This document shows, piece by piece, positions 11,261-63,187 of a stretch of 64,000 nucleotides of DNA. The DNA is from a virus. The notes under the pieces are model-generated. The model made no database searches. It saw only the letters and a list, made by a program, of their open reading frames with translations, and was not told where the DNA came from. Position 1 is the stretch's first letter. Every line of letters starts with the position of its first letter. The stretch lies in IMG/VR virus record IMGVR_UViG_3300021964_000014. One strand, 5' to 3'. The position numbers and the translations under genes were made by a program.

Positions 11261-11739
11261 TATTTCTTTTTCCAAATTTCGCCTCTTCTACAACGAACAA
11301 CTGCCCCGGAGGCGTATGCTGACGGCCAGGTGTCATATTTTTGTTTTGCTAATCTAGTACATCTATCGTCTTTCTCCATTATAACCTCTTTACCTTCTCT
11401 TTCTTGTAATAAACCTACAACTAGATTTCTAATATCTTCTCTTGTTACTTTTGCTTTCTTAGTATTTTTCACGACTTGTTTTCCTTTAGATCCGGCTTTC
11501 TTTTTCTTTTGAGCTGTTGCTGCTCTTTGGCCTTTAGTTAAACTCTGTGCTTTAGCTTTTGGTAAACATCTATCAGGATTCTTCTTATTTTTAGAAGTAC
11601 CACAAGGTCCTGCTATATTACCAGAGGATGATATTCTCACCCACTTTTCTTTTTTAAACCAATCACGTAAAGATTCCTGTACGAGTTCTCTCATAAAAGC
11701 ATAAACATCGGCAGGTATCTTTTTATTGGTATCGGTCAT
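11260..11739 (-). CDS. Basic two-module protein, putative internal head protein
   Basis: LVQE|SLRDWFKKEKWV...CLPKAKA module, then IME|KDDRC...WPSAYASGAVVRCR module. Confidence 0.7.
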   Translation of the reverse strand: MTDTNKKIPADVYAFMRELVQESLRDWFKKEKWVRISSSGNIAGPCGTSKNKKNPDRCLPKAKAQSLTKGQRAATAQKKKKAGSKGKQVVKNTKKAKVTREDIRNLVVGLLQEREGKEVIMEKDDRCTRLAKQKYDTWPSAYASGAVVRCRRGEIWKKK

Positions 11740-23103: not shown

Positions 23104-23325
23104 TTACGCAGTTCCTCCGCCGCTACCGTAGTTTATATCATCAAAATCTAATCCATAAAATTCAGACATACTTAAACCGGCTGTGCTATCAGACCAGTTT
23201 GTAGCGTTTATATCTAATTGAAAGCCTTCACCAGCTGTCTGTGCATCTAATTGAGCAGTAGACGTATTGTTCATTTCTGTGTTTATGTCCGCAAATGAAA
23301 TTGCACCTGTTGACTGTAATGCCAT
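23104..23325 (-). CDS. Small fibre-tip/adhesin N-terminal-like protein
   Basis: MALQSTGAISFADINTE...LSMSEFYG pattern typical of proteins following chaperone-bearing fibres; TAATG-coupled to the giant fibre. Confidence 0.6.
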   Translation of the reverse strand: MALQSTGAISFADINTEMNNTSTAQLDAQTAGEGFQLDINATNWSDSTAGLSMSEFYGLDFDDINYGSGGGTA

Positions 23326-23630
23326 TATTCTTTATCTTTTAATTTTTGTTCTAATATATCTACTTTCTTAGAAAGCTCTTTAATAGCTTCTACAAGGATA
23401 GGAGTAAGTTTTTCATATTTAACTCCGTAGTACCCTCCATTCATTTCTCCAACTACCTCCGGTAATACTTCTTTAACTTCTTGTGCTATAAATCCTATAT
23501 CATTTCCTTCAAAAGGATGTACCTCTTTATTACCTTCTTTCCAATCAAATCGAGTACCTCTTAGTTTTAATACCTTAGCTAGTGAACCATCTAAGTTTAT
23601 TATATTTTCTTTCAATCTTTCATCCGAAGA
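23325..23630 (-). other. Peptidase_S74 intramolecular chaperone domain
   Basis: SSDERLKENI, RFDW, IGFIAQEVKEVLPEVV, VKYEKLTPILVEAIKEL coiled coil. Confidence 0.9.
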
Positions 23631-26600
23631 ATGGAATGCAGTAATATTTCCTGTTGCTGTAATAGCTCCTGTTACAGAAAGTCCACTAGTAAAGTACCCA
23701 TTCTCAGCATATACTTGATTCCACTGTTTTAAGAAAGTACCGAAATTGTATGTCCCAGAAGTTTCTGGCAGTATATGATTAAACTGTGAGGTACCTCCTT
23801 TAGCTTCAAAAATTATAGAATTACCACTAGCACCTTGAGCTAATCTAGGAGCTCTAACATATTGAGTAGCATCAGAAACAATTTGGAGTCCTCCTGCTTT
23901 TAATTCTACGAAGTTAGTAGGTACACCTACGCCAAGAGATGTATCATATGATGGTGCAGTACCAAATCCAGAGGTACCTAAAGTAGTATTAACTGTGGTA
24001 TTCGTTGTAGAATTAAGAGCGTTTACTGCAATATTATACCCTGCTCGTGCTCCACTTCTAACTCTATATCTAAATTTAACATCAGTTGTTTCAGAGATAG
24101 TCATAAGAACTGTTTCAGCTCCTCCTGTATGTGCTACATTGACACCACCTTGTGCTGCTCTAGTTTTTTGCACCCAAGTATACGTTGTAATAGACGGGTT
24201 GTGAGAAAGTATTCCGTCAGAAATGTAGTTTTGGTATCCTGGTACTACAAACGTATAAACATCAGTTTCGTTGTATATAGTTTCAACGTCTAATACTTTT
24301 TCTTTCTTTATTCCGCCTTCAACTGCTACATAAATTTCAGTTTCGTTAGGTACTAGTTCTACAGATTTTATCTCTTTATTTTCATCTAGCCAGAACCCGT
24401 GATCGTCTGTTACTGTAATTGTTTTAGTTTCAGTAGTTACTTTTAATATAGTACTTGTAGTTCTGTTTCTTATTTCTTTAATAGAACCTGCGCTAATTTC
24501 ATTAATGCCATCTTGCCATTTCCACACTTTAAGTACATCACTCTTTAATATATCTTTAGCCTGTTTAGTTGAACCGTCGTATAGTTCTATTTCTGTAGTT
24601 CCTACAACAGAGGATGGACTTTGTAGACCACCACCTCCACCACCACCGGTAGTAGAGACAGAACCAGAAGCTTCCCAATAGCTATGAGAATTAACACCTG
24701 CTATACGGTATGCGCTTCCTAGTAAAGCTTCACCAACAACAGTTGTTGTTCCGTTTTTAATTGCTTGCAGGTATATATCTGCATAGTGAGCTTTTTTGTA
24801 AAAGTTAGAAGGAAATCCGTGGAGCTGACCTTCTTGGGTACCAACATAAGCCGGTGTTGTTACTGTGTTAATCTGATTTGTAGGGGCATCAACGCTAAAA
24901 GAAGGAGTTGTTATATTAATTTGAGCTTCCCCTTGAGAAGCTGCGAATACAGCGCCTTGAGTTCCATATCTGTTATTATAAACAGGACCGTAGACAGATG
25001 TAGATGTTACAGACTCCATTGCATTACCAGAAGTAATACCCGGTATACTAACAGAAACACTACCGCCTGCTGTACTTGTTAAAGTATCTAAAGGAGAAAT
25101 AATTACTTTCTTATTCCCTCCTGCAAACATTTGAATCTCAGGTATGTTAGGTTCGAATATTATTTCACTGTTATCATCTCTTAACGCATTAGTGGTAGGA
25201 TCGATTATCCAATCTCCGATCTGTCCTGAGGTAGCTGTTATTTCACCTGATATACTAGCATCAGATGCTGTCATAAATCCTTGACTATCGACTGAGAAGT
25301 TTGGAGAGGTAGCATTAGGTATGGATAGTTGACCTCCTTCAATTGTTCCACCAGTCAATGAACCTGCATTTATAGTCGCACCTTGGATAGTACTACCATT
25401 GATACCTGCAGCGGCAGTAATTAGCCCACCAAAATATGTATCACCATTGGACGCTAAAGAAAAGTTTGGAGTAGAAATAGCCCCATTGGTAAGGTCTATC
25501 GCCATACCAGCAGTAGAGAACCCAGATCCATCATCAGTTCCTGCGTGATTATTTGATAATATAGAGCCTGCTCTAATCTTATTACCTGATATGGTAGTTG
25601 AGTTGTTATTTACATCTGTTGCTGCTCCTCCTGGTTGTAGGGAAGAAGCACCATCTGCTGCTCCAGATACAACATCAGAAACGGTTGTATTAGTTGAACC
25701 TACTCTTAAACTACCTGCAAATGTACCTCCTGCTGCTTCTAAGTCTCCTTTAAATTTAGCATTACCTGCTTTGTCTATATAAAATTCTTTAGAATGTATA
25801 GCACCTGAGGAAGATATAATTAGTCTTCCTGCTGTAGATGTAAATGTTGCTGTATTCTCATCTGTTCCTGTAAATATTTTATCTGAATGAATAGTCCATC
25901 CACCAACACTACCTGCTGTTTTATCTTGAGTATTTGAGGCAGCTGATGCTGTTGCTTGTATATCACTATTTGAAACGTTATCTACATTACCTAATCCAAC
26001 ATCTGTTGCTGAAGTATTAGAGTTTAAGGTGTTATTCTCATCAAGGTCTGTGCTGCCTATGGTCACTGTTCCTTTAAATCCAGCATTACCTGCTTTATCT
26101 ACATAAAACTGTTTAGCATGTATAGCACCAGAAGAAGATATGATTAACCTTCCTGCTGTAGATGTATATGTAGCAACATTCTCATCTGTGCCGGTAAATA
26201 TTTTATCTGCATGGATTGTCCATCCGCCTACTGTACCTGCATCTTTATCAGCAGTGTTTGCTGCTGCGGATGCTGAAGCCTGTATATTAGAGTTTGAAAC
26301 GTTATCTACATTACCTAATCCAACATCTGTTGCTGAAGTATTAGAGTTTAGTGTATTATTTGCATCTAAGGTAGTACCGCCTATTTGCATTGTACCTGAG
26401 AATACAGCAGAACCATCTGATGCTATTCTAAAGTTTTTAGCAGATATGGCTCCGTTATCTAAATTGATCGCCATACCAGTTGTTGACATAGCTGATCCAT
26501 CATCAGTACCGGCATGATTACTAGATAATATTTTACCGGTCTGAATTGTATTACCTGATATTTTAGTAGCAGCGCCTAGCTGAGCACCAGCTGCTAATCC

Positions 26601-29600
26601 CCTAAAGATTAATCCTTGAGTTGAGCTACTATTGTCGTAGTGTATAGAAGCTCCCGGTCTAACATATCGGTCAGTAACGTTATTAGCTTGAGAAGAAGTC
26701 ACATAAGCAGGAGAAGTAAAATCTCCATCTTTAAATACCTCGTATCTTGCACCGGTTTCTAAAAGAGTAATCTTAACTCTGTACTGCTGGTTTTCAGAGA
26801 AATCTGTATCAGAAGTCCAGTCGTCATTTACGAGTGCGTGTATTTGGGTTCCGTTTTCTCGAACAGTTATATCATTACTTTGGAAATAAACTGTGTGATG
26901 CTGTTCAGTATGGCTATAGCTTCCAGGACTTTCTTTAAATAATCCAATCATAGTAGCTGGAGTGCTATGTCCTACTACGACATCCCATTCAAAAGAAGGT
27001 CCATCATTTCTATCAAATACTGCTTTAGTAAGGAATCCTTTATTCCATGCATCACCTCCTGAGTTCTGTAATAGTACTCCTAGTACAGGTGAGGTATAAG
27101 TTGTTATATTTGGAATATTAGAATCAAATATATTTGCATCTAACGAACCGCTAAATTGATATGTTATAGTCGGTCCAACACCTCTATTACCAATCCTTAA
27201 GTTCGCACCATCCCAAGTCAATGCATCAGAACCTGTACCTTGATTTGATAGGTAGAAGTTACCTGAGCTATCCATATAGGACTTAAAGTTAGTACCGTCA
27301 TGGTATCCTAAGTACTGAGATGTTAAGTTTAATCCGGCTGCTGCAGTGTTAGTAGCCAAAGCAAAGGCATCTCCTCCAAATGCATATGAAGTTGGATTTA
27401 CTAACGAACTTGTAGCTGCATTAGTAGTATAGGGGCTCAACATAGAGCTTGTAGTACTATTACCTACTGCATTATTATCTGTATATGTTTCTGCTGCCGA
27501 TTGGGCTGCTGATGCTTCCGCACTTGCAGTTGCTGCAGTATTGCTGATGCTAGTTTCTAGAGATCCTGTAGCAGAATCAAGATCTGCTTGTGTAGCGTAT
27601 GTAGCATTTGTAATTGTAATACTACCTTCAATAGTTAGATTAGTACCGTCCCAAACAAACTTATCCCCTAATGAGAATTTACCGCTTGAACTTACAAAGA
27701 ATGGAGTATTTGAATTATCGTAGGTACCTGTACCTATATACATACTCTGTGCAGCTAATTCTATACCTCCGATAGAACCATCTCTTGCTACTATTGTGCC
27801 ATCTACACTTAAGTCTGAGCCATCCCAAGATAATCCGTTATTACCTGAACCTGCTAAATAGAAGTCTCCAGAAGAAGACATATAAGTTTTCCAGGTATCT
27901 GTATCGTAGTATCCTAAGTTATCAGCACTCATAAATAATCCAGTACCTGAAGGAGTAGGATTAAATGCTATCTTACCACTAGCATCTACTGATCTAGTAA
28001 CAGCTGTATTCGCAGTTGCTTGAGCTGCTGCTGCACTTGCTGTTGCAAAGTTTGCGGTTGTTTGTGCTGCTGCTGCTTCGGCAGATGCTGTTGCTGCAGT
28101 ATTACTTATGCTAGTTTCTAATGAGCCTGTTGCTGTATCTAGGTTAGACTGTACTGTAGTAGCTGCATTACTTGCTGTGACTGCGGCTGCAGAGGCACTT
28201 GCTGCTGCTTGTGAAGCTTGAGTAGCTGTACCTGCTGCTGTGGTAGCATCTGACTGTGCTTGAGTAATTGAACCTGTTAAACTAGATGAGGCTTCATTAG
28301 CTGCATTAGTTGCAAAGGTCTGTAGTGATCCTGTTACTGTATTTAAATTATCTTGAGTAACAGCATTACCTCCTACAATATTTATAGTACCTGCGATAGT
28401 TAACGATGTTCCGTCCCATGCTAAGTAGTTACTAGAACTTCCTGTTAAGAAGAAGTTACCGTTATTAGCCATGTAAGTTTTCCACTCACTACCTGAGTAG
28501 TAACCTAAGTTAGTTTGGTCCATAAATAGACCTTCACCTGATAGGGTAGCTGGTTTTTGAATCTTACCTGTACTATCTGTAAAGATATCAGCTGCTAAAG
28601 AGGAAGACGTATTATTAATTAATAAAGATTGATCATAAGTAGTATCGGCAGAAGCTGTCCATGCATTACCTGCACCCCATACATATACTTTGTTTCCATC
28701 ATCATTATCAATCCAAATATCACCTTCTGTTCTGCCTGATGCTCCAGGAGCTGTTGCTTGTCTAAATATAGAATTTTTACCGTCTAATACTCCCTGTAAA
28801 CCTTCATTTACTGAAGCTTGAGACGCAGATACACTATTTAATTCTCCTGATACAGAAGCTACTGAAGAAGATATCTCAGCATTTGAAGCTGAAATTCCTG
28901 TTGCTAAAGAACCTGATAAAGAACTTGTAGCAGTATTAGTAAACGTATTAGCATTTGATTCTGCAGTATTAGCTGCGTTTTGTGCAAATGTTTCTAATGA
29001 ACCTGTAGCTGTGTTTAAGTCTGCTTGTGTGGTAGCATTACCACCTGTTATATTGATAGAACCTGCAATTGTAAGTGAGGTTCCATCCCACGCTAAATAA
29101 TTAGCATCACTTCCAGTTAAGTAGAAGTTACCATTATTAGCCATGTATGTTTTCCAACCACTGCCGGAATAGAATCCTAAATTAGTATCTCCTAAATATA
29201 ATCCAGCACTTGATGTGTTTGGTGTTCTAACTAACTTACCACTTGAGTCTGTAAATATATCTAATGCTACAGAACTTGATAAAGAAGCAGAAGTTGAATT
29301 AATTAATGCTGCTTGATCATATGTACCGTCAGAAGAAGCTGTAAAGCTAGAACCATTCCAGATGTACATTTTATTTTGCTCACCTGTATGAATCCAAACA
29401 TCACCTACTGTTCTACCAGAAGTAGAAGGAGAAGTTCCTTGTCTAAATATAGATGCTTTACCTGCTGCTACTGCATCTAAATCTGATAAATTAGATGCTA
29501 ATGAGCTAGAAGTACTTGCTAAACTATCTGATAGAGAAGCATTAGAAGAAGATAAACTAGTTGCTAAAGAGCCTGATAGAGTATCTACGCTACCTGTTAC

Positions 29601-32600
29601 ATAATCTTGAGTAGCTGCATTACCGCCTGTGATTGTTATAGCACCTTTTATTTCTAAGGTACCAGTTCCTGCATCCCAAGCTAATTTATTTCCTGCTGAC
29701 CCTGTTAAGAAAAAGTCACCAGTGTTATCCATATAAGTCTTCCAGGTACCTGATTCGTAGAATCCTAGGTTAGTAGAAGTTAAATATAAACCTGTAGCAG
29801 AAGCGGTTGGTGGTCTAACTGCTCTACCTGAGCTGTCAGTAAATATTTTTGCATCTAAAGTATTAGTTGTTGTAGCTATAGAGCCAGACAAAGCTGCGTC
29901 TGAAGCTGATATTTCTGTTGCTAATGATCCTGATAAAGAGCTGGTAGCAGCATTTAGTTCTGCTGTATTAACTCCAGTTCCTCCTGTTATGTCAACAGCT
30001 CCTTTGATATTAAGTGTTGAACCATCCCAGTATATATAATTGTTTCCAGATGTTGCAGTACCTACTCTAAACTTACCGGTACCGTCCATATAAATTCCAT
30101 CACCTGCTGTGTTTGTTATTACACTAGCACTAACTCCTGCTTTTAAAGCTCCGTTGTTAAGTGAACTTGAAATTATAAATGTTGGAGTATCTAAACTAAA
30201 TGTTTGAGTCTTTATGTTTAAATTACCGTCTGTAAAGTTATCTAAAGATATAAAGTTGTTAGCTCCTCCTACTTTCCATGCACCATCTGTATACCAGTAG
30301 TTATTGTTGTTTACATAGATACCATCATTAGTACCTTGAACATCTCTACCGATAGAAATCTTTTGACCAGTTTCTAACCCTCCTTGAACAGTTGCTACAT
30401 GAAGTATACCTGCAATAGAACCAGTTTGTGCTGTTATAGCTCCTTTGAAGTATCCATTTTCAGTATAAATACCAAAACCTGGTTCATCATCTCCGTATAA
30501 GTATGCAGAAGATAATCCTGATAGATCTCCTAATCTAGTTCTTAATTCTAAATCATAAACCCCTGATCCTGTTCTTTCTACTATATCCATATAGGGTGTA
30601 GAAATATCTCTAGGATTAGCATTCATGAGCATATAACCAGAAGTAATATCTTTTTCTGGGTTATAAACACCAGTTGAAACTAATACCTGACCTTCATTAT
30701 AAGGTTGAGCAGTTGATACTAAACCGGCTAAAAATTCTTTATCAGAATCAATCAAGTAAACAGTGTCACCATTAGTATGTGAATCTGCAACTGTGTCGTG
30801 GTAATCTCTAATTACTGTTAATACATTACCTGAAGTGGATATAGATGTGATTTTAAATCTTTCATCATCTATTTTAATAATATTTTGAACTGCTAAACTT
30901 GCAGTACTTGCTACAGTGATATCTGTTTCTATATCATCTAAGTCTTCTACTATAGTAGTAACTGAAGAAGATACAGCAGGTACACCTCCAAATGCTCTTT
31001 GAACATATATTTCACCTGCTAGTCCATCAGGGTCTATTGAACCTGTGTTGTAAGATATACTACTATCTTGTGAATATCTTTTAGAACCCGATACATACAT
31101 ATACTCAACTGAGAATCCTGTATTATCGACTGATTTAGCTTTTAATATTTCACCTGTTTCAAATCCAGAAACGTTTGCTACTGAGAATGTAACAGCTGTG
31201 TCAGCATATGAAGAAGAGCCGGCTATAATAGCTCCTGCTTCACTTCTTAAAGGTTGTATGGTTGTAGCATTCGCTACCATCAACTGACCTCCAACTACGT
31301 TAACACTCTCTTTTTCAAATACAGTAGTTTTTAAAGTACCACGTATTCTCATATTTTCAAACTCAGCAGAACCGTTTCCTAATGTATCTATTCTCCAACC
31401 TTTTACGTTGGTAGCAAAGTTAGAAGATTCTAACCTACCATCTGAATGTATTATGAGTCCTGTTTCACCTTCTGCATATGCTCCTCCAAAACCAGAAGCA
31501 GGTATAGATCTAATCTGAGAGTCAGTTACTTCCCATCCTCCGATCTTATTACCTTCCTGACCAAACATTGCAATTGTATCAGCACTACCTGTCCCAGAAC
31601 CATCATATATTTTAATACCGTATAAATCGGAAGCATCGTCTGATATTTCTCCTAATCTTATAATTTCTTTTGAACCGGTATCAAAAATATTAAGTCTTTG
31701 AGTTGTGGTATCTATATCGAAATAAGTCGTGTCTAACTTAAAAGTTTCTGTCCTAATATCAACACCAGTGGTTGTATTGAACCTAAAGTAGTTACTAGCA
31801 TTCTTAGTTAGATCTAATGTTGCTACAGTAGAGTCCATACCAAGTATAACACCGGCATCATTATTACCAAAAGTTGTTTTGGCTCCTGCTACTAAAAACG
31901 CATCATCAGTATTTCCTTCTAGTCTTACCTTATTTGTACTACCGGCTGTTATTTTTCCTTGTGCTCCTAAAAGTTCAACTTTACCGTCACCAAGTGACAT
32001 AGAAGCTTCAGTAGAAGATATTTCTATATTAGAAGCTGATATTTCTAAAAGTCTTGTTGAGATTGATACGTCTGTACCGTCAAATTTAACAAAGCTATCT
32101 GAACCGTCACCTACATGGAATCTTGGAGTTCCGCCGTTGTATTGTAACTGTATACCTTCATTACCATAAGTTGCGCTATTAATAGAAAAACTATTATCAC
32201 TTGCATCTAATACTATATTAGTTGACTTTCTTATTTGAGTATTGGTAATATCCCATCCTGCTATATTACCGCCGGTAAATAAAACATCTGAACCTGTTAT
32301 CTCTCCGTTACCTTTTATGTTAAAAGCAGAAGATGATATGAAATATCCTGAGGTAGAGGCTGAACCTGACATATAAAATGAAGGTACACCTAAAGTTGAT
32401 GGTCCTACTATAGCATCTGGTGTTATATTAAATCCACCAATTAAACCGGCAGAAGCAGTGATCTCACCTTCAATTACAGCACCAGAGGCATGCATATACC
32501 CACTTGAAGATATAGCAAAGTTAGAACCAAAATGTACGTAGTAGTTAGCTGATGGTTGGGGATTGAAAGTAATGTACCATTCATCGGAAGAAAGACCTCC

Positions 32601-32900
32601 GCTATCGCTTCCGGGTCCTTTTATTTTATCGTAGAATGAACCTGAGAATAGGTCTATAATCATCCTACTACCTGTTACTTGACTATTAGCTATATAAACA
32701 TCACCAATAGATCCACCGTTTGTTTGAAAGTTTGCGAATGCTTCACCTCCAATAGGTACAGTTAGAGACGTTCCGTCTTTTCTTTGTAACAATAGTTGGT
32801 TTGCACCGAACGAAGCTGTGAAGAAAAACGATCTAAAATTTGCATCTAGTTCCTCATGAGTAAGAGGAGCGCCTTTTTCGTCTCTGAAAGTTATAGCCAT
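23325..32900 (-). CDS. Giant tail fibre (3191 aa) with internal repeats, Hint domain and C-terminal Peptidase_S74 chaperone
   Basis: N-terminal KGAPLTHEELDANF anchor, IGGW/GNFYL-WDG repeats, Hint motifs, SDERLKENI...GFIAQEV...LVEAIKEL. Confidence 0.88.
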   Translation of the reverse strand: MAITFRDEKGAPLTHEELDANFRSFFFTASFGANQLLLQRKDGTSLTVPIGGEAFANFQTNGGSIGDVYIANSQVTGSRMIIDLFSGSFYDKIKGPGSDSGGLSSDEWYITFNPQPSANYYVHFGSNFAISSSGYMHASGAVIEGEITASAGLIGGFNITPDAIVGPSTLGVPSFYMSGSASTSGYFISSSAFNIKGNGEITGSDVLFTGGNIAGWDITNTQIRKSTNIVLDASDNSFSINSATYGNEGIQLQYNGGTPRFHVGDGSDSFVKFDGTDVSISTRLLEISASNIEISSTEASMSLGDGKVELLGAQGKITAGSTNKVRLEGNTDDAFLVAGAKTTFGNNDAGVILGMDSTVATLDLTKNASNYFRFNTTTGVDIRTETFKLDTTYFDIDTTTQRLNIFDTGSKEIIRLGEISDDASDLYGIKIYDGSGTGSADTIAMFGQEGNKIGGWEVTDSQIRSIPASGFGGAYAEGETGLIIHSDGRLESSNFATNVKGWRIDTLGNGSAEFENMRIRGTLKTTVFEKESVNVVGGQLMVANATTIQPLRSEAGAIIAGSSSYADTAVTFSVANVSGFETGEILKAKSVDNTGFSVEYMYVSGSKRYSQDSSISYNTGSIDPDGLAGEIYVQRAFGGVPAVSSSVTTIVEDLDDIETDITVASTASLAVQNIIKIDDERFKITSISTSGNVLTVIRDYHDTVADSHTNGDTVYLIDSDKEFLAGLVSTAQPYNEGQVLVSTGVYNPEKDITSGYMLMNANPRDISTPYMDIVERTGSGVYDLELRTRLGDLSGLSSAYLYGDDEPGFGIYTENGYFKGAITAQTGSIAGILHVATVQGGLETGQKISIGRDVQGTNDGIYVNNNNYWYTDGAWKVGGANNFISLDNFTDGNLNIKTQTFSLDTPTFIISSSLNNGALKAGVSASVITNTAGDGIYMDGTGKFRVGTATSGNNYIYWDGSTLNIKGAVDITGGTGVNTAELNAATSSLSGSLATEISASDAALSGSIATTTNTLDAKIFTDSSGRAVRPPTASATGLYLTSTNLGFYESGTWKTYMDNTGDFFLTGSAGNKLAWDAGTGTLEIKGAITITGGNAATQDYVTGSVDTLSGSLATSLSSSNASLSDSLASTSSSLASNLSDLDAVAAGKASIFRQGTSPSTSGRTVGDVWIHTGEQNKMYIWNGSSFTASSDGTYDQAALINSTSASLSSSVALDIFTDSSGKLVRTPNTSSAGLYLGDTNLGFYSGSGWKTYMANNGNFYLTGSDANYLAWDGTSLTIAGSINITGGNATTQADLNTATGSLETFAQNAANTAESNANTFTNTATSSLSGSLATGISASNAEISSSVASVSGELNSVSASQASVNEGLQGVLDGKNSIFRQATAPGASGRTEGDIWIDNDDGNKVYVWGAGNAWTASADTTYDQSLLINNTSSSLAADIFTDSTGKIQKPATLSGEGLFMDQTNLGYYSGSEWKTYMANNGNFFLTGSSSNYLAWDGTSLTIAGTINIVGGNAVTQDNLNTVTGSLQTFATNAANEASSSLTGSITQAQSDATTAAGTATQASQAAASASAAAVTASNAATTVQSNLDTATGSLETSISNTAATASAEAAAAQTTANFATASAAAAQATANTAVTRSVDASGKIAFNPTPSGTGLFMSADNLGYYDTDTWKTYMSSSGDFYLAGSGNNGLSWDGSDLSVDGTIVARDGSIGGIELAAQSMYIGTGTYDNSNTPFFVSSSGKFSLGDKFVWDGTNLTIEGSITITNATYATQADLDSATGSLETSISNTAATASAEASAAQSAAETYTDNNAVGNSTTSSMLSPYTTNAATSSLVNPTSYAFGGDAFALATNTAAAGLNLTSQYLGYHDGTNFKSYMDSSGNFYLSNQGTGSDALTWDGANLRIGNRGVGPTITYQFSGSLDANIFDSNIPNITTYTSPVLGVLLQNSGGDAWNKGFLTKAVFDRNDGPSFEWDVVVGHSTPATMIGLFKESPGSYSHTEQHHTVYFQSNDITVRENGTQIHALVNDDWTSDTDFSENQQYRVKITLLETGARYEVFKDGDFTSPAYVTSSQANNVTDRYVRPGASIHYDNSSSTQGLIFRGLAAGAQLGAATKISGNTIQTGKILSSNHAGTDDGSAMSTTGMAINLDNGAISAKNFRIASDGSAVFSGTMQIGGTTLDANNTLNSNTSATDVGLGNVDNVSNSNIQASASAAANTADKDAGTVGGWTIHADKIFTGTDENVATYTSTAGRLIISSSGAIHAKQFYVDKAGNAGFKGTVTIGSTDLDENNTLNSNTSATDVGLGNVDNVSNSDIQATASAASNTQDKTAGSVGGWTIHSDKIFTGTDENTATFTSTAGRLIISSSGAIHSKEFYIDKAGNAKFKGDLEAAGGTFAGSLRVGSTNTTVSDVVSGAADGASSLQPGGAATDVNNNSTTISGNKIRAGSILSNNHAGTDDGSGFSTAGMAIDLTNGAISTPNFSLASNGDTYFGGLITAAAGINGSTIQGATINAGSLTGGTIEGGQLSIPNATSPNFSVDSQGFMTASDASISGEITATSGQIGDWIIDPTTNALRDDNSEIIFEPNIPEIQMFAGGNKKVIISPLDTLTSTAGGSVSVSIPGITSGNAMESVTSTSVYGPVYNNRYGTQGAVFAASQGEAQINITTPSFSVDAPTNQINTVTTPAYVGTQEGQLHGFPSNFYKKAHYADIYLQAIKNGTTTVVGEALLGSAYRIAGVNSHSYWEASGSVSTTGGGGGGGLQSPSSVVGTTEIELYDGSTKQAKDILKSDVLKVWKWQDGINEISAGSIKEIRNRTTSTILKVTTETKTITVTDDHGFWLDENKEIKSVELVPNETEIYVAVEGGIKKEKVLDVETIYNETDVYTFVVPGYQNYISDGILSHNPSITTYTWVQKTRAAQGGVNVAHTGGAETVLMTISETTDVKFRYRVRSGARAGYNIAVNALNSTTNTTVNTTLGTSGFGTAPSYDTSLGVGVPTNFVELKAGGLQIVSDATQYVRAPRLAQGASGNSIIFEAKGGTSQFNHILPETSGTYNFGTFLKQWNQVYAENGYFTSGLSVTGAITATGNITAFHSSDERLKENIINLDGSLAKVLKLRGTRFDWKEGNKEVHPFEGNDIGFIAQEVKEVLPEVVGEMNGGYYGVKYEKLTPILVEAIKELSKKVDILEQKLKDKE
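24198..24611 (-). other. Hint (intein-like) domain, 138 aa, no endonuclease
   Basis: SVVGTTEIELYDG block A, VTDDHGF block B (TxxH), VYTFVV...NYISDGILSHN blocks F/G. Confidence 0.85.
25745..26360. repeat. Tandem 324-nt (108-aa) duplication inside the giant fibre
   Basis: 58-bp identical run at 25969-26026 and 26293-26350; protein NTLNSNTSATDVGLGNVDNVSNS...AGRLIISSSGAIH...DKAGNA twice; outer limits approximate. Confidence 0.9.
27200..30120. repeat. Degenerate protein repeats in the giant fibre
   Basis: GL(Y/F)...LG(F/Y)Y...WKTYM...GNFYL.GS...LAWDG..L.I.G unit recurs about five times, alternating with Ala/Ser/Thr helical spacers; limits approximate. Confidence 0.8.
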
Positions 32901-58227: not shown

Positions 58228-58390
58228 CTATTTCTAATATTTTATAACCTACTACTCTTCTATGCCTACCGTATTGCTCCATTGACCATTCTATTCTATC
58301 AGTTTCTAATTCTAATTCATAGACTTCAACGGAGTTACCGGAGCTTTCGCTTACTTTGATTTTATATTTCTTAGTACTCTCCATTTTCAA
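58190..58390 (-). CDS. Hypothetical protein
   Basis: LETDRIEWSMEQYGRHR motif. Confidence 0.6.
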   Translation of the reverse strand: MKMESTKKYKIKVSESSGNSVEVYELELETDRIEWSMEQYGRHRRVVGYKILEIDGVIQTNDSSSL

Positions 58391-58568
58391 GTCTCCAATT
58401 ATTAACTCTGATTGCTTTCTTCTTCTGCTTTCTCTTAACTACAGAAGGTTTTTCAAAGAATTTTCTATCTCTAATTTCTTTGATTAATTTAGTACTACGT
58501 ACTTTCTGCTTAAACCTTTTAAGCGCTTTGGCGATGTTGTCTCCTTTTTTTAATTTTACTATAAGCAT
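58371..58568 (-). CDS. rpsU: Ribosomal protein bS21 (phage-encoded)
   Basis: MLIV...GDNIAKALKRFKQK...EIRDRKFFEKPSVVKR, Bacteroidota-type N-terminus. Confidence 0.93.
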   Translation of the reverse strand: MLIVKLKKGDNIAKALKRFKQKVRSTKLIKEIRDRKFFEKPSVVKRKQKKKAIRVNNWRLENGEY

Positions 58569-59971: not shown

Positions 59972-60365
59972 TAATTTCTCTAGCAACATCTTTTATATGT
60001 TTACATTTCTTATGGGCAATATACCCCCAACAGTCACAGCTTAAATTGCCATGTTTATTATACTTTACAGTATATGTTTTATTTGAAGAAGCACTTTCGT
60101 AAGTCCAAGTCTTTGGCTCTACAAATAACTCTTCAAAAGGTTTCTTCTCTACTTCTATATCATCAAAAGTAGTTTCTGGATGAACCTCGATCCAGGAAGG
60201 AGTGTGAATCTTTTTTCCATCTTTCATAATAAAACCTCCTTTACCAACATTACTATATGGTACTTTATATGTATGTCTTGTAACCCAAAGGTTACTAGGA
60301 GGGTTAGCTATGCTCAATGACCCCTCAGCATAAACTAACTCTCCGTTCACATTCCACAGTGCCAT
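59964..60365 (-). CDS. SWIM zinc-finger protein
   Basis: YTV...SCDCWGYIAHKKCKHI; likely start MALWNV at 60365 (TAATG). Confidence 0.75.
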   Translation of the reverse strand: MALWNVNGELVYAEGSLSIANPPSNLWVTRHTYKVPYSNVGKGGFIMKDGKKIHTPSWIEVHPETTFDDIEVEKKPFEELFVEPKTWTYESASSNKTYTVKYNKHGNLSCDCWGYIAHKKCKHIKDVAREINE

Positions 60366-61105
60366 TATTCTTGACCTACTGCTAAAGTACCCATCCAACC
60401 AACTCGATTAGGAGTACTAAGGTTAAACATTCTAACAGACATATCTCCACCTCTTCGGTTCTTTGAGAAGAAGAAAGTTCTATCACCTTCTTTAGTCCAT
60501 TTCATATGAGCCATACCAGTCATCATATGCTTAAATCTATTACTACCAGCAAACTCTCCACCTTTAGTAACTTGTTGAATAACTAAGAATGAAGTATTAG
60601 TTTCAGAATCATTCTGACCTAAGTTATGCTTTTCGAATAACGATAATAATTCAGTTTCAGCTTTTTTAGATGACATCCAACCTTTAGTAGTATCAACTAC
60701 AGCATTCTGAATCTCAGCCATACTATCGATAAGTACTACATCCCAACCTTGAGATAAAATACCCTCACATACTTCAAGAGCATTATCGTCACAATGATCG
60801 CCCATAAACAAAATAGGAATCTGACCAAACTTAGGAAAACGTTTTACGTATCCAAACATATCAATACTATTCATCTCACCAGAAATAAACAATACCTTTT
60901 GACCTTTATCTTGCAAATCAGCAAGCATATCCATCATAACGGTAGTTTTACCAATCCCTGGATCTCCTACAATAGCGTAGTTAGTACCTTTCATTAAACC
61001 TCCTTCAGAAGAGAAGTGAGTATCAATAACACGTCCAGATTTCATTGGACGGAATAGAGAAGAATCAAATTTGATATCTTCCATTTTTACTGTTGTAATG
61101 TTCAT
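60365..61105 (-). CDS. RadA/Sms-like RecA-fold ATPase (ATPase domain only)
   Basis: GDPGIGKTT, LFISGEM, VLIDS, TKGGEFAGS, SKNRRG (cf. KNRFG); true start MNITT at 61105 after promoter and leader. Confidence 0.82.
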   Translation of the reverse strand: MNITTVKMEDIKFDSSLFRPMKSGRVIDTHFSSEGGLMKGTNYAIVGDPGIGKTTVMMDMLADLQDKGQKVLFISGEMNSIDMFGYVKRFPKFGQIPILFMGDHCDDNALEVCEGILSQGWDVVLIDSMAEIQNAVVDTTKGWMSSKKAETELLSLFEKHNLGQNDSETNTSFLVIQQVTKGGEFAGSNRFKHMMTGMAHMKWTKEGDRTFFFSKNRRGGDMSVRMFNLSTPNRVGWMGTLAVGQE

Positions 61106-61131: not shown

Positions 61132-61164
61132 TTAATATAAGAAAAAACCCAATAGGATCCAACT
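61132..61164 (-). promoter_or_regulatory. Bacteroidota-type promoter
   Basis: AGTTG-N20-TATATTAA. Confidence 0.8.
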
Positions 61165-61174
61165 ATTTCACTAG

Positions 61175-61342
61175 TTATTTCCGGAATTTTTTTCTTTTTT
61201 CTTGGCATTTACAAGAAGAGCAGATACTATTTTCACGCTTTAACTCTTCTTCCATTTCTCGACGTTTGAATTCTAATCTTTCGAATTCCATTCTGTCTCG
61301 TTGACGGGATTGCATATCCCAGGGTCTGTGTTCCCATGACAT
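61175..61342 (-). CDS. 55-aa charged micro-protein with CxxCxC and strong SD (not in ORF track)
   Basis: MSWEHRPWDMQSRQRDRMEFERLEFKRREMEEELKRENSICSSCKCQEKRKKFRK; AGGAGGTGT at 61346-61354. Confidence 0.7.
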   Translation of the reverse strand: MSWEHRPWDMQSRQRDRMEFERLEFKRREMEEELKRENSICSSCKCQEKRKKFRK

Positions 61343-61345
61343 AGG

Positions 61346-61354
61346 ACACCTCCT
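61346..61354 (-). promoter_or_regulatory. Strong Shine-Dalgarno AGGAGGTGT
   Basis: GGAGG core 6 nt before ATG 61342, in AT-rich intergenic DNA. Confidence 0.7.
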
Positions 61355-61369
61355 GTATTTTATTTAATG

Positions 61370-61585
61370 TTAAAATGGTAATGGTTCGTCTTTTGATCTA
61401 TCACTAGGTTTACTGTGATCATCAAACTTTCTGTAATTCATAGAGGCAAAAGGTTGCTCACCTATTTCAGTTACATTAGCATCGATTTTCTCAGCTAACT
61501 TATGAGCTCTTTTACGAGCCATATAATCATTCTCTGCATAGACGTAAACGTCCATTGTTACTACGTATCTATTATCTTTAGCCAT
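61370..61585 (-). CDS. Hypothetical protein
   Basis: 71 aa, ends DEPLPF. Confidence 0.65.
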   Translation of the reverse strand: MAKDNRYVVTMDVYVYAENDYMARKRAHKLAEKIDANVTEIGEQPFASMNYRKFDDHSKPSDRSKDEPLPF

Positions 61586-61817
61586 TAAATGTATAATTTA
61601 TTTTATTATAAATAAACTCATTTCTAAGAAACTCAAGAAGAGTTCTACCAAAGTCAGCTTCGAAATCGCCAACCTCATTCCAATCAAATATAAACCTTTC
61701 AGCTATATCCTCAATTTGAATAGTTTGCAGATTAGGAACAGACTCCTTATTGAGTTGCATAAGCGAAATCGTATCTAGGATCTCGCCAGTAACATAATCT
61801 TTAGTTAAATACCTCAT
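61578..61817 (-). CDS. Hypothetical protein
   Basis: 79 aa, overlapping operon. Confidence 0.6.
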   Translation of the reverse strand: MRYLTKDYVTGEILDTISLMQLNKESVPNLQTIQIEDIAERFIFDWNEVGDFEADFGRTLLEFLRNEFIYNKINYTFNG

Positions 61818-61996
61818 AATGAATAAACTTTATCGCTACCATTAGCTAAAACCAAACAGTTCTCCGAATCGATAACGTATTGATTCATACCTCTATATTC
61901 AATAAGAGTACATTTAGTTTTTACAGGATTATTATCTGGGAAGCTGAGCCCATCCATGTAAAATTCTTCTCCAACTTTCATATCACTTAATACCAT
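61814..61996 (-). CDS. Hypothetical protein
   Basis: Promoter and ATAAAGGTTATG leader upstream. Confidence 0.7.
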   Translation of the reverse strand: MVLSDMKVGEEFYMDGLSFPDNNPVKTKCTLIEYRGMNQYVIDSENCLVLANGSDKVYSL

Positions 61997-62025: not shown

Positions 62026-62058
62026 TTAATATAAGAAGAATAATGCAGAAAAGCAACT
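62026..62058 (-). promoter_or_regulatory. Bacteroidota-type promoter
   Basis: AGTTG-N20-TATATTAA. Confidence 0.8.
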
Positions 62059-63104: not shown

Positions 63105-63113
63105 TTATCTTTG

Positions 63114-63187
63114 TGAATCAGGTAGGATTCGAACCTACGACCGTCGCCTTAGAAGGGCGATGCTCTATCCAGCTGAGCTACTGATCC
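63114..63187 (-). tRNA. tRNA-Arg(UCU), CCA not encoded
   Basis: GGATCAG acceptor, TAGCTCAGCTGGATAGAGC D arm, TCGCC-CTTCTAA-GGCGA anticodon arm, GTAGGTTCGAATCCTAC T arm. Confidence 0.95.

Follow-up and report, generated by a model that had tools for sequence, protein, structure and literature searches.

Background

In Flavobacterium johnsoniae, ribosomal proteins bS21, bS18 and bS6 hold the 3' tail of the 16S rRNA, so that the ribosomes ignore Shine-Dalgarno (SD) sequences (PMC9976891, PMC13000457, PMC13000453); in general, ribosomes of Flavobacteriia and Bacteroidota respond to SDs only when bS21 is missing or mutated (PMC9976891, PMC13000457). Residue Tyr54 of the F. johnsoniae bS21 stacks on A1534, hiding the anti-SD (ASD). 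Reporters with strong SDs are up 2- to 5-fold in this bacterium when bS21 is truncated, carries the Y54A substitution or is depleted (PMC9976891, PMC13000457, PMC13000453), the response of a plain AGGAGGU reporter being only about 2-fold (PMC9976891). The sole native SD gene of F. johnsoniae is rpsU, whose SD-ASD helix is incompatible with bound bS21 (PMC9976891, PMC13000457, PMC13000453); the rpsU SD forms 9-13 consecutive bp with energies of -14 to -21 kcal/mol (PMC9976891). Phages of Bacteroidota and marine phages also encode bS21, and the published work on these proteins proposes ribosome takeover and names no SD-bearing target gene (PMC9723584; Mizuno et al. 2019 cited in PMC9976891; PMC7162821).

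The locus analyzed here lies in a 64-kb stretch of DNA from an uncultured myophage (hereafter, the window). It had been singled out as a strong SD in front of a short unannotated gene (hereafter, the micro-gene), with the suggestion that translation of this gene depends on ASD availability and is switched on when host bS21 is lost or replaced by a phage-encoded bS21. The features discussed below are listed in Table 1.

Table 1. Features of the micro-gene region in the window (all coordinates refer to the 64-kb stretch)
Feature	Coordinates	Strand	Remarks
183-nt cassette (SD and micro-ORF)	61187..61369	minus	bounded by a natural empty-site variant
Micro-gene ORF	61342..61175	minus	55 codons; ATG at 61342, stop 61177..61175
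Shine-Dalgarno AGGAGGTG	61347..61354	minus	8 bp to 16S CACCUCCU; AGGAGGT part the same in 16/16 distinct members
Spacer TCCT	61343..61346	minus	CCT abutting the ATG invariant, giving C at -3; other phage genes favour A there
Conserved core, codons 1-38 (MSWEHRPWDMQSRQRDRMEFERLEFKRREMEEELKRENS)	61229..61342	minus	purifying selection; predicted long alpha-helix, residues 7-43
Lineage-specific tail (ICSSCKCQEKRKKFRK and stop)	61175..61228	minus	final codons run into the conserved TTCCGGAAATAA element common to relatives
Three small upstream genes (60, 79 and 71 aa) of the same early operon	61370..61996	minus	overlapping stops and starts, translationally coupled, without SD
Promoter cassette GTTG-N17-TTCTTATATT, Bacteroidota-type	62028..62057	minus	heads the operon ending in the micro-gene
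Next copy of the same promoter cassette	61134..61163	minus	directly past the micro-gene; drives the RecA/KaiC-like ATPase gene 61105..60365
Phage ribosomal protein bS21	58371..58568	minus	PF01165, E 3.9e-16, 58.9 bits against a cut-off of 27; without its own SD

The phage, its probable host and the gene neighborhood

The window encodes a terminase (TerL) that shares 77% identity with its counterpart in the 160-kb myovirus vB_FspM_immuto, a Flavobacterium phage, and among the 80 bacterial genes closest to the phage bS21 gene almost all come from Bacteroidota. In a complete 167.7-kb relative (G002), none of the 195 genes has an SD at or below -8 kcal/mol, against 19 mock windows, and SD depletion of this pattern has been described for Flavobacteriales (PMC9976891). 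Given the terminase, the bS21 relatives, the Bacteroidota-type promoters and the SD depletion, the phage very probably infects Flavobacteriia. The three Flavobacteriales MAG rpsU genes that are nearest to the phage bS21 (L169, L177, L211) have no SD (-0.9 to -5.6 kcal/mol), so that the rpsU circuit may be absent from some hosts.

All credible genes of the window are on the minus strand, and its G+C content is about 33%. The micro-gene is the last of a four-gene early operon; its leader reads ..AAAATACAGGAGGTGTCCT-ATG, with the stop of the 71-aa gene 27 nt before. The promoter cassette that heads this operon occurs in 12 exact minus-strand copies (besides the two in Table 1, e.g., 59839-59810, 59396-59367 and 55077-55048), which split the early region into short operons. 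The cassette often precedes the leader ATAAAGGTT, which adjoins the ATG directly (7 copies, where 0.95 would be expected). The early region also contains a tRNA-Arg gene (anticodon TCT, 63113-63187, minus strand), and elsewhere in the window a single giant fibre-like ORF of 3191 aa (23325-32900, minus strand) has a G+C content of 37-38%, above that of the rest. Contigs from two oligo-dT seawater RNA-seq runs span the neighbouring genes of a related strain, not the micro-gene stretch, and so do not bear on its expression.

A single strong Shine-Dalgarno sequence

The original prediction described a strong SD in front of a charged 55-aa protein with the motif CSSCKC, and the sequence on the minus strand is as described. 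It further assumed that the SD can pair over 9 nt with the 16S tail. The universal 16S tail is ..GAUCACCUCCUUU (also given as GAUCACCUCC), not ACACCUCCU. Because of this tail, the contiguous pairing comprises 8 bp (AGGAGGUG) rather than 9, the ninth position being a U-U mismatch.

To place this SD in context, the duplex energy with the 16S 3' tail was computed for the 20 nt before each of about 79 minus-strand starts, the scan covering the 64-kb window, not the whole phage genome. The micro-gene SD scores -14.1 kcal/mol (-14.3 with a longer tail) compared with a window mean of -1.6 or -2.1, respectively; it is the strongest of the approximately 79 genes and the only one at or below -13 kcal/mol, which bears out the earlier impression that most other starts lack an SD. 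Mock windows placed inside genes average -4.1 kcal/mol; 7 of them reach -8 or lower, 2 reach -10 or lower and none reaches -13. Given that starts average -2.1 and gene interiors -4.1, SD-like sequences are depleted before starts. Two weaker exceptions had been proposed, at 11739 and 32900. Both sequences are present, but the mock windows give as much by chance: AGGAGG-N3-ATG at 11739, the runner-up of the scan at -10.2 kcal/mol, was rejected as a second true SD, and the start at 32900 (-5.4 kcal/mol) is likewise inside the chance range. Among the window starts, only the micro-gene SD exceeds chance.

The micro-gene start is unusual in other respects as well. It has 40% G+C, compared with an average of 22% G+C (and 49% A) at the remaining starts, and the predicted fold of the region from -20 to +20 is the most structured of all (-8.1 against -1.8 +/- 1.8 kcal/mol, rank 1 of 79). 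Across the family described below, GGAGG is located 5-6 nt from the ATG, which is canonical SD spacing.

The micro-protein family and conservation of the SD

When 1.8 billion representative proteins were searched exhaustively with HMMER, four relatives of the micro-protein were identified, with E values from 3e-20 to 7e-7. Together with peptide-pattern scans of IMG/VR and metagenomes, the contigs found by HMMER bring the family to 16 distinct sequences at 27 loci, the window being one of them. Since the loci were recognized from the protein, by a peptide pattern or by HMMER, the presence of an SD played no part in their selection. Earlier IMG/VR scans with exact peptide words of the window micro-protein, or with a DNA pattern including the SD, gave no match, and the family surfaced only through the exhaustive search. 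The micro-protein has no match in Pfam, PHROGs or an ESM Atlas feature search; the ESM Atlas contains a protein identical to it. In a cultured-phage collection, neither the 5-kb region (searched as DNA) nor the micro-protein (tblastn) has a match, and a description of such a gene was not found in the literature searched.

Members of the family possess a common N-terminal core, MSWDHRPW..SRQR..E.ER..KR.E..EEL, with 18 invariant columns (M1, S2, W3, H5, R6, P7, W8, S12, Q14, R15, E19, E21, R22, K26, R27, E29, E33 and L34). Over 36 codons, dN/dS ratios lie between 0.07 and 0.42 and dS values between 0.2 and saturation (>2), and the codon of Ser2 varies between TCA, TCT and AGT. This substitution pattern indicates that the micro-ORF is a real coding gene, the protein product of which is under selection. 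AlphaFold2 predicts a single uninterrupted helix (residues 7-43, core pLDDT 85-92) with alternating Glu and Arg/Lys. Beyond approximately residue 38, the tails differ by lineage and extend into conserved non-coding elements that belong to each local context; the CSSCKC motif is restricted to the lineage of the window. Given that the tails are lineage-specific, the functional unit consists of the SD and the core.

Conservation of the SD in homologs, proposed as a check in the original prediction, is complete: AGGAGGT is identical, and CCT precedes every ATG, in 16/16 distinct sequences from the 27 loci. The two bases between AGGAGGT and CCT vary, one member being one base shorter, and the SD-ASD helix of the 16 sequences comprises 7-10 bp with energies of -11.6 to -15.9 kcal/mol. 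For comparison, only 1 of 27 columns is invariant in the adjacent upstream segment (-40 to -14), as are 3 of 15 synonymous third positions. The micro-gene is the sole gene at or below -10 kcal/mol in 12 of the 13 related loci scanned, the neighbours averaging about -2.5; in the thirteenth, L049, the gene caller missed the micro-gene and the SD is intact. As judged from this pattern of conservation, the SD itself is under selection, and the micro-gene defines a small, uncharacterised phage family that carries a lone selected SD.

Genomic contexts and mobility of the micro-gene

The micro-gene is found in at least three arrangements. In lineage A, to which the window belongs, it is located between the 71-aa gene and the ATPase gene. 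In lineage B, represented by fragments of jumbo T4-like phages, it lies by the genes for gp32 and UvsW on the strand opposite to its neighbours; the nearest named relatives of this lineage are an uncultured 462-kb phage and the Lak phages of Prevotella. Context C is a third arrangement. Contexts B and C have no gene in common with the window besides the micro-gene. The jumbo group of context B is very abundant in marine viromes, where 375 stretches encode UvsW relatives (the best 80 of these 375, L053-L132, are 78-100% identical). The genomes of this group are estimated at close to 300 kb, and the bS21 and UvsW genes lie about 60 kb apart.

An empty site is observed in one seawater metagenome contig, which joins position 61186 to position 61370 with 5 nt between. 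In close lineage-A relatives (ATPase 85-89% identical), the slot is occupied instead by a gene for a 78-aa DksA/TraR-like zinc-finger protein, without an SD; the match of this protein to PF01258 (E 1.7e-4) is under the curated cut-off. The hot-spot slot extends from the stop of the 71-aa gene to a conserved TTCCGGAAATAAC element (61187-61369 in the window; L001:4663-4899, L006:4626-4883 and L002:4518-4911 in relatives) and holds the micro-gene, the DksA/TraR-like gene, that gene together with a 56-aa ORF, or nothing (the contig from run X3). The micro-gene moves as a cassette. Since close relatives have the TraR-like gene or nothing in the slot, it is also dispensable. The window tail was considered as a relic of the 5' end of the TraR-like gene and rejected (17/20 nt; score 25 against 18.9 +/- 3.0 for shuffles, with a maximum of 31; not significant).

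A recent import from an SD-using lineage had been named as an outcome that would count against the original prediction. Given that the SD is invariant, that the contexts, at least three, are unrelated and SD-poor, and that synonymous sites are diverged (dS 0.2 to >2), such an import is unlikely.

The phage bS21

A bS21 gene had been predicted 2.6 kb downstream, and the start of the gene in Table 1 is indeed 2.6 kb past the micro-gene stop. The encoded protein matches solved bS21 chains, including 7jil_z of F. johnsoniae, with which its alignment is ungapped. It has Arg at the position of Tyr54 and Trp58 one helical turn (four residues) later; the same column contains Arg in L030 and Lys in G002, each with Trp or Tyr at +4, compared with Tyr in 80/80 related bacterial bS21 proteins. 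The Arg54 variant represents a natural experiment on anti-SD sequestration.

Among the contigs examined, the micro-gene and bS21 are present together in the window and L030 only, and several bS21-encoding relatives have no micro-gene. Because the window and L030 have their whole gene order in common, they represent one lineage; the tally stands at one independent case, too few for co-occurrence statistics, with L139 and L140 left out as whole records. The nearest relatives have neither gene (bS21 is absent from G001, which is 94% complete), and G002-type relatives possess bS21 and no micro-gene. Four of the five large contigs of lineage-B relatives encode bS21, about 60 kb from UvsW, and no micro-gene, and completeness is only 6-17% for the lineage-B contigs with the micro-gene. 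Both phage lineages with the micro-gene include bS21-encoding members, the window and L030 directly and the jumbo lineage via relatives.

The phage bS21 of G013, a jumbo-phage fragment in the form of a 119-kb IMG/VR contig (L134:1465-1656, minus strand, identical to L156:1501-1692), is preceded by AAGGAGGT-N6-ATG at -13.9 kcal/mol, the strongest SD of 133 genes and host-rpsU-like; this protein has His in the Tyr54 column. An SD on the phage bS21 gene was rejected as a general feature: it is real in G013 and absent from four other related phage bS21 genes. A complex prediction for the micro-protein and the phage bS21 returned a score of 0.00 and no verdict, which leaves binding neither supported nor contradicted.

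Proposed translation by ribosomes with a free anti-SD and alternative explanations

The best reading of these observations, to which we assign moderate confidence, is SD-gated translation of the micro-gene by ribosomes with a freed ASD. In the likely host, bS21, bS18 and bS6 would hide the 16S ASD, and normal initiation would proceed via A-rich, unstructured leaders. The micro-gene start is the opposite, with a strong SD, high G+C, C at -3 and predicted structure, and would be poorly translated by replete host ribosomes. A 30S subunit with a free 3' tail, i.e., one with no bS21 or with a bS21 unable to hold the tail, would translate it well, so that the amount of micro-protein made during infection would reflect the bS21 state of the ribosomes. 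Given an invariant SD in a phage of an SD-blind-host setting, the micro-gene would most simply be a client of ASD-free ribosomes, and because ribosomes of the likely Flavobacteriia host normally cannot read SDs, it is probably translated only by bS21-less or bS21-replaced ribosomes. The host class, its SD-blindness and the gating itself are what we infer here, and the size of any bS21 effect on the micro-gene is uncertain.

The original prediction went further and invoked a circuit gated by ASD availability in which the phage bS21 is the switch. The retention of the SD, the lack of a recent import and the host context fit this proposal, but the co-occurrence with bS21 comes from one lineage. 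In its full form, the Tyr54-less phage bS21 would replace host bS21, free the ASD and switch on the micro-gene as a delayed early product; we regard this two-component scheme as unlikely, if the least so among the alternatives. The residues in the Tyr54 column argue for it (Arg54 and Trp58 in the window, Arg in L030, Lys in G002, Tyr in all 80 bacterial proteins), as does the 1.7- to 3-fold rise in SD-reporter output caused by Y54A in F. johnsoniae (PMC9976891), and the micro-gene and bS21 genes are located in the same early region behind host-type promoters. However, the co-occurrence is limited to the window and L030, G002-type phages have a Lys/Arg-type bS21 and no micro-gene, jumbo-lineage relatives mostly retain Tyr54, and an aromatic residue at +4 might stand in for Tyr54 (argued in PMC9723584).

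Under another scenario, which we find improbable, the effector would be the RNA: an abundant SD leader would serve as an ASD sponge or a bS21-evicting site, either diverting bS21-free subunits from host rpsU mRNA or stripping host bS21 at initiation, with the ORF mainly recycling ribosomes. The invariance of the SD and of its spacing is compatible with such a role, and on rpsU mRNA the SD-ASD helix excludes bS21, with 65% of replete ribosomes losing bS21 (PMC13000457). A decoy would not need a peptide core under purifying selection over 36 codons, however, and the micro-gene helix is shorter than the 13 bp that clash with bS21.

The SD could also be an ordinary strong ribosome-binding site, either in an SD-reading host or tolerated in a mobile cassette from an SD-using donor. 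The presence/absence polymorphism of the cassette, a micro-gene G+C content (38-45%) slightly above that of its genomes (33-38%) and spacing like that of SD-using bacteria would all fit, but the neighbours in all lineages lack SDs, which are depleted before starts, the SD is invariant while synonymous sites are near saturation, and no bacterial or SD-rich donor of the micro-gene was found among the 1.8 billion representative proteins; this explanation therefore seems very improbable.

Finally, we consider it extremely improbable that the purine box and CCT are not an SD but an RNA structure, a protein-binding site or a leader-peptide element that controls the gene downstream. In some members, the start codon can be contained in a small hairpin (CCUAU/GUC/AUGGG), but folding z-scores range from -1.4 to +0.9 with predicted structures that differ between members (single-sequence folds of six start regions are no better than shuffles), the Ser codon of L138 is AGT, Rfam has no match, and the jumbo lineage, where a convergent gene follows, offers nothing downstream for the micro-gene to regulate.

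Possible significance

To our knowledge, rpsU is so far the one gene found to be served by bS21-less specialised ribosomes in Bacteroidia, and phage bS21, the commonest viral ribosomal protein we know of, has no identified target message. The micro-gene family is a concrete candidate for a second client of bS21-less ribosomes and ties together both of these questions. It is conceivable, if doubtful at this stage, that Bacteroidota phages use the SD-blindness of the host as a private translation channel, with the phage's own Tyr54-less bS21 as the agent here; if true, this would be the first virus to reprogram mRNA selection via a ribosomal-protein swap with an identified target message.

Comparison with known systems

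The micro-ORF was considered as a regulatory leader peptide or uORF and rejected, given that the downstream gene differs between contexts, being convergent in the jumbo lineage and served by a separate promoter in the window. As modelled, the micro-protein helix (residues 7-43) resembles charged single alpha-helix (ER/K-type) peptides. For the invariant N-terminal SWxHRPW, we know of no counterpart. Phage DksA/TraR zinc fingers share the slot with the micro-gene, in the form of the 78-aa protein of relatives, and the CSSCKC of the window recalls the N-terminal CCKC of that protein; unlike them, however, the micro-protein has no match to PF01258 and no second Cys pair, and the Cys motif is missing in the other lineages. 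With respect to the described bS21 proteins of Bacteroidota and marine phages (PMC9723584; Mizuno et al. 2019 cited in PMC9976891; PMC7162821), the window encodes one that differs in being located in the early rather than the late region and in lacking Tyr54, which 54 of the 61 published proteins keep.

The closest likeness is to rpsU autoregulation in F. johnsoniae and other Bacteroidia (PMC9976891, PMC13000457, PMC13000453), with which the micro-gene shares a lone strong SD in an SD-depleted genome, in a setting where the ASD is probably sequestered; its pairing energy is at or just below the low end of the rpsU range, with some overlap. Among 80 Bacteroidota-type bacterial rpsU leaders, 27 are at or below -13 kcal/mol and 25 contain GGAGG, located 8-13 nt (mostly 9-11) from the ATG compared with 5-6 nt in the micro-gene family. 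The micro-gene helix (7-10 bp, -11.6 to -15.9 kcal/mol) is also shorter than the 9-13 bp of rpsU, and the gene is phage-borne and mobile. Because its product is not bS21, no autoregulatory loop of the rpsU type would form. Thus, with its shorter spacing and shorter helix, the micro-gene start is best viewed as working like an rpsU leader in principle rather than as a copy of one.
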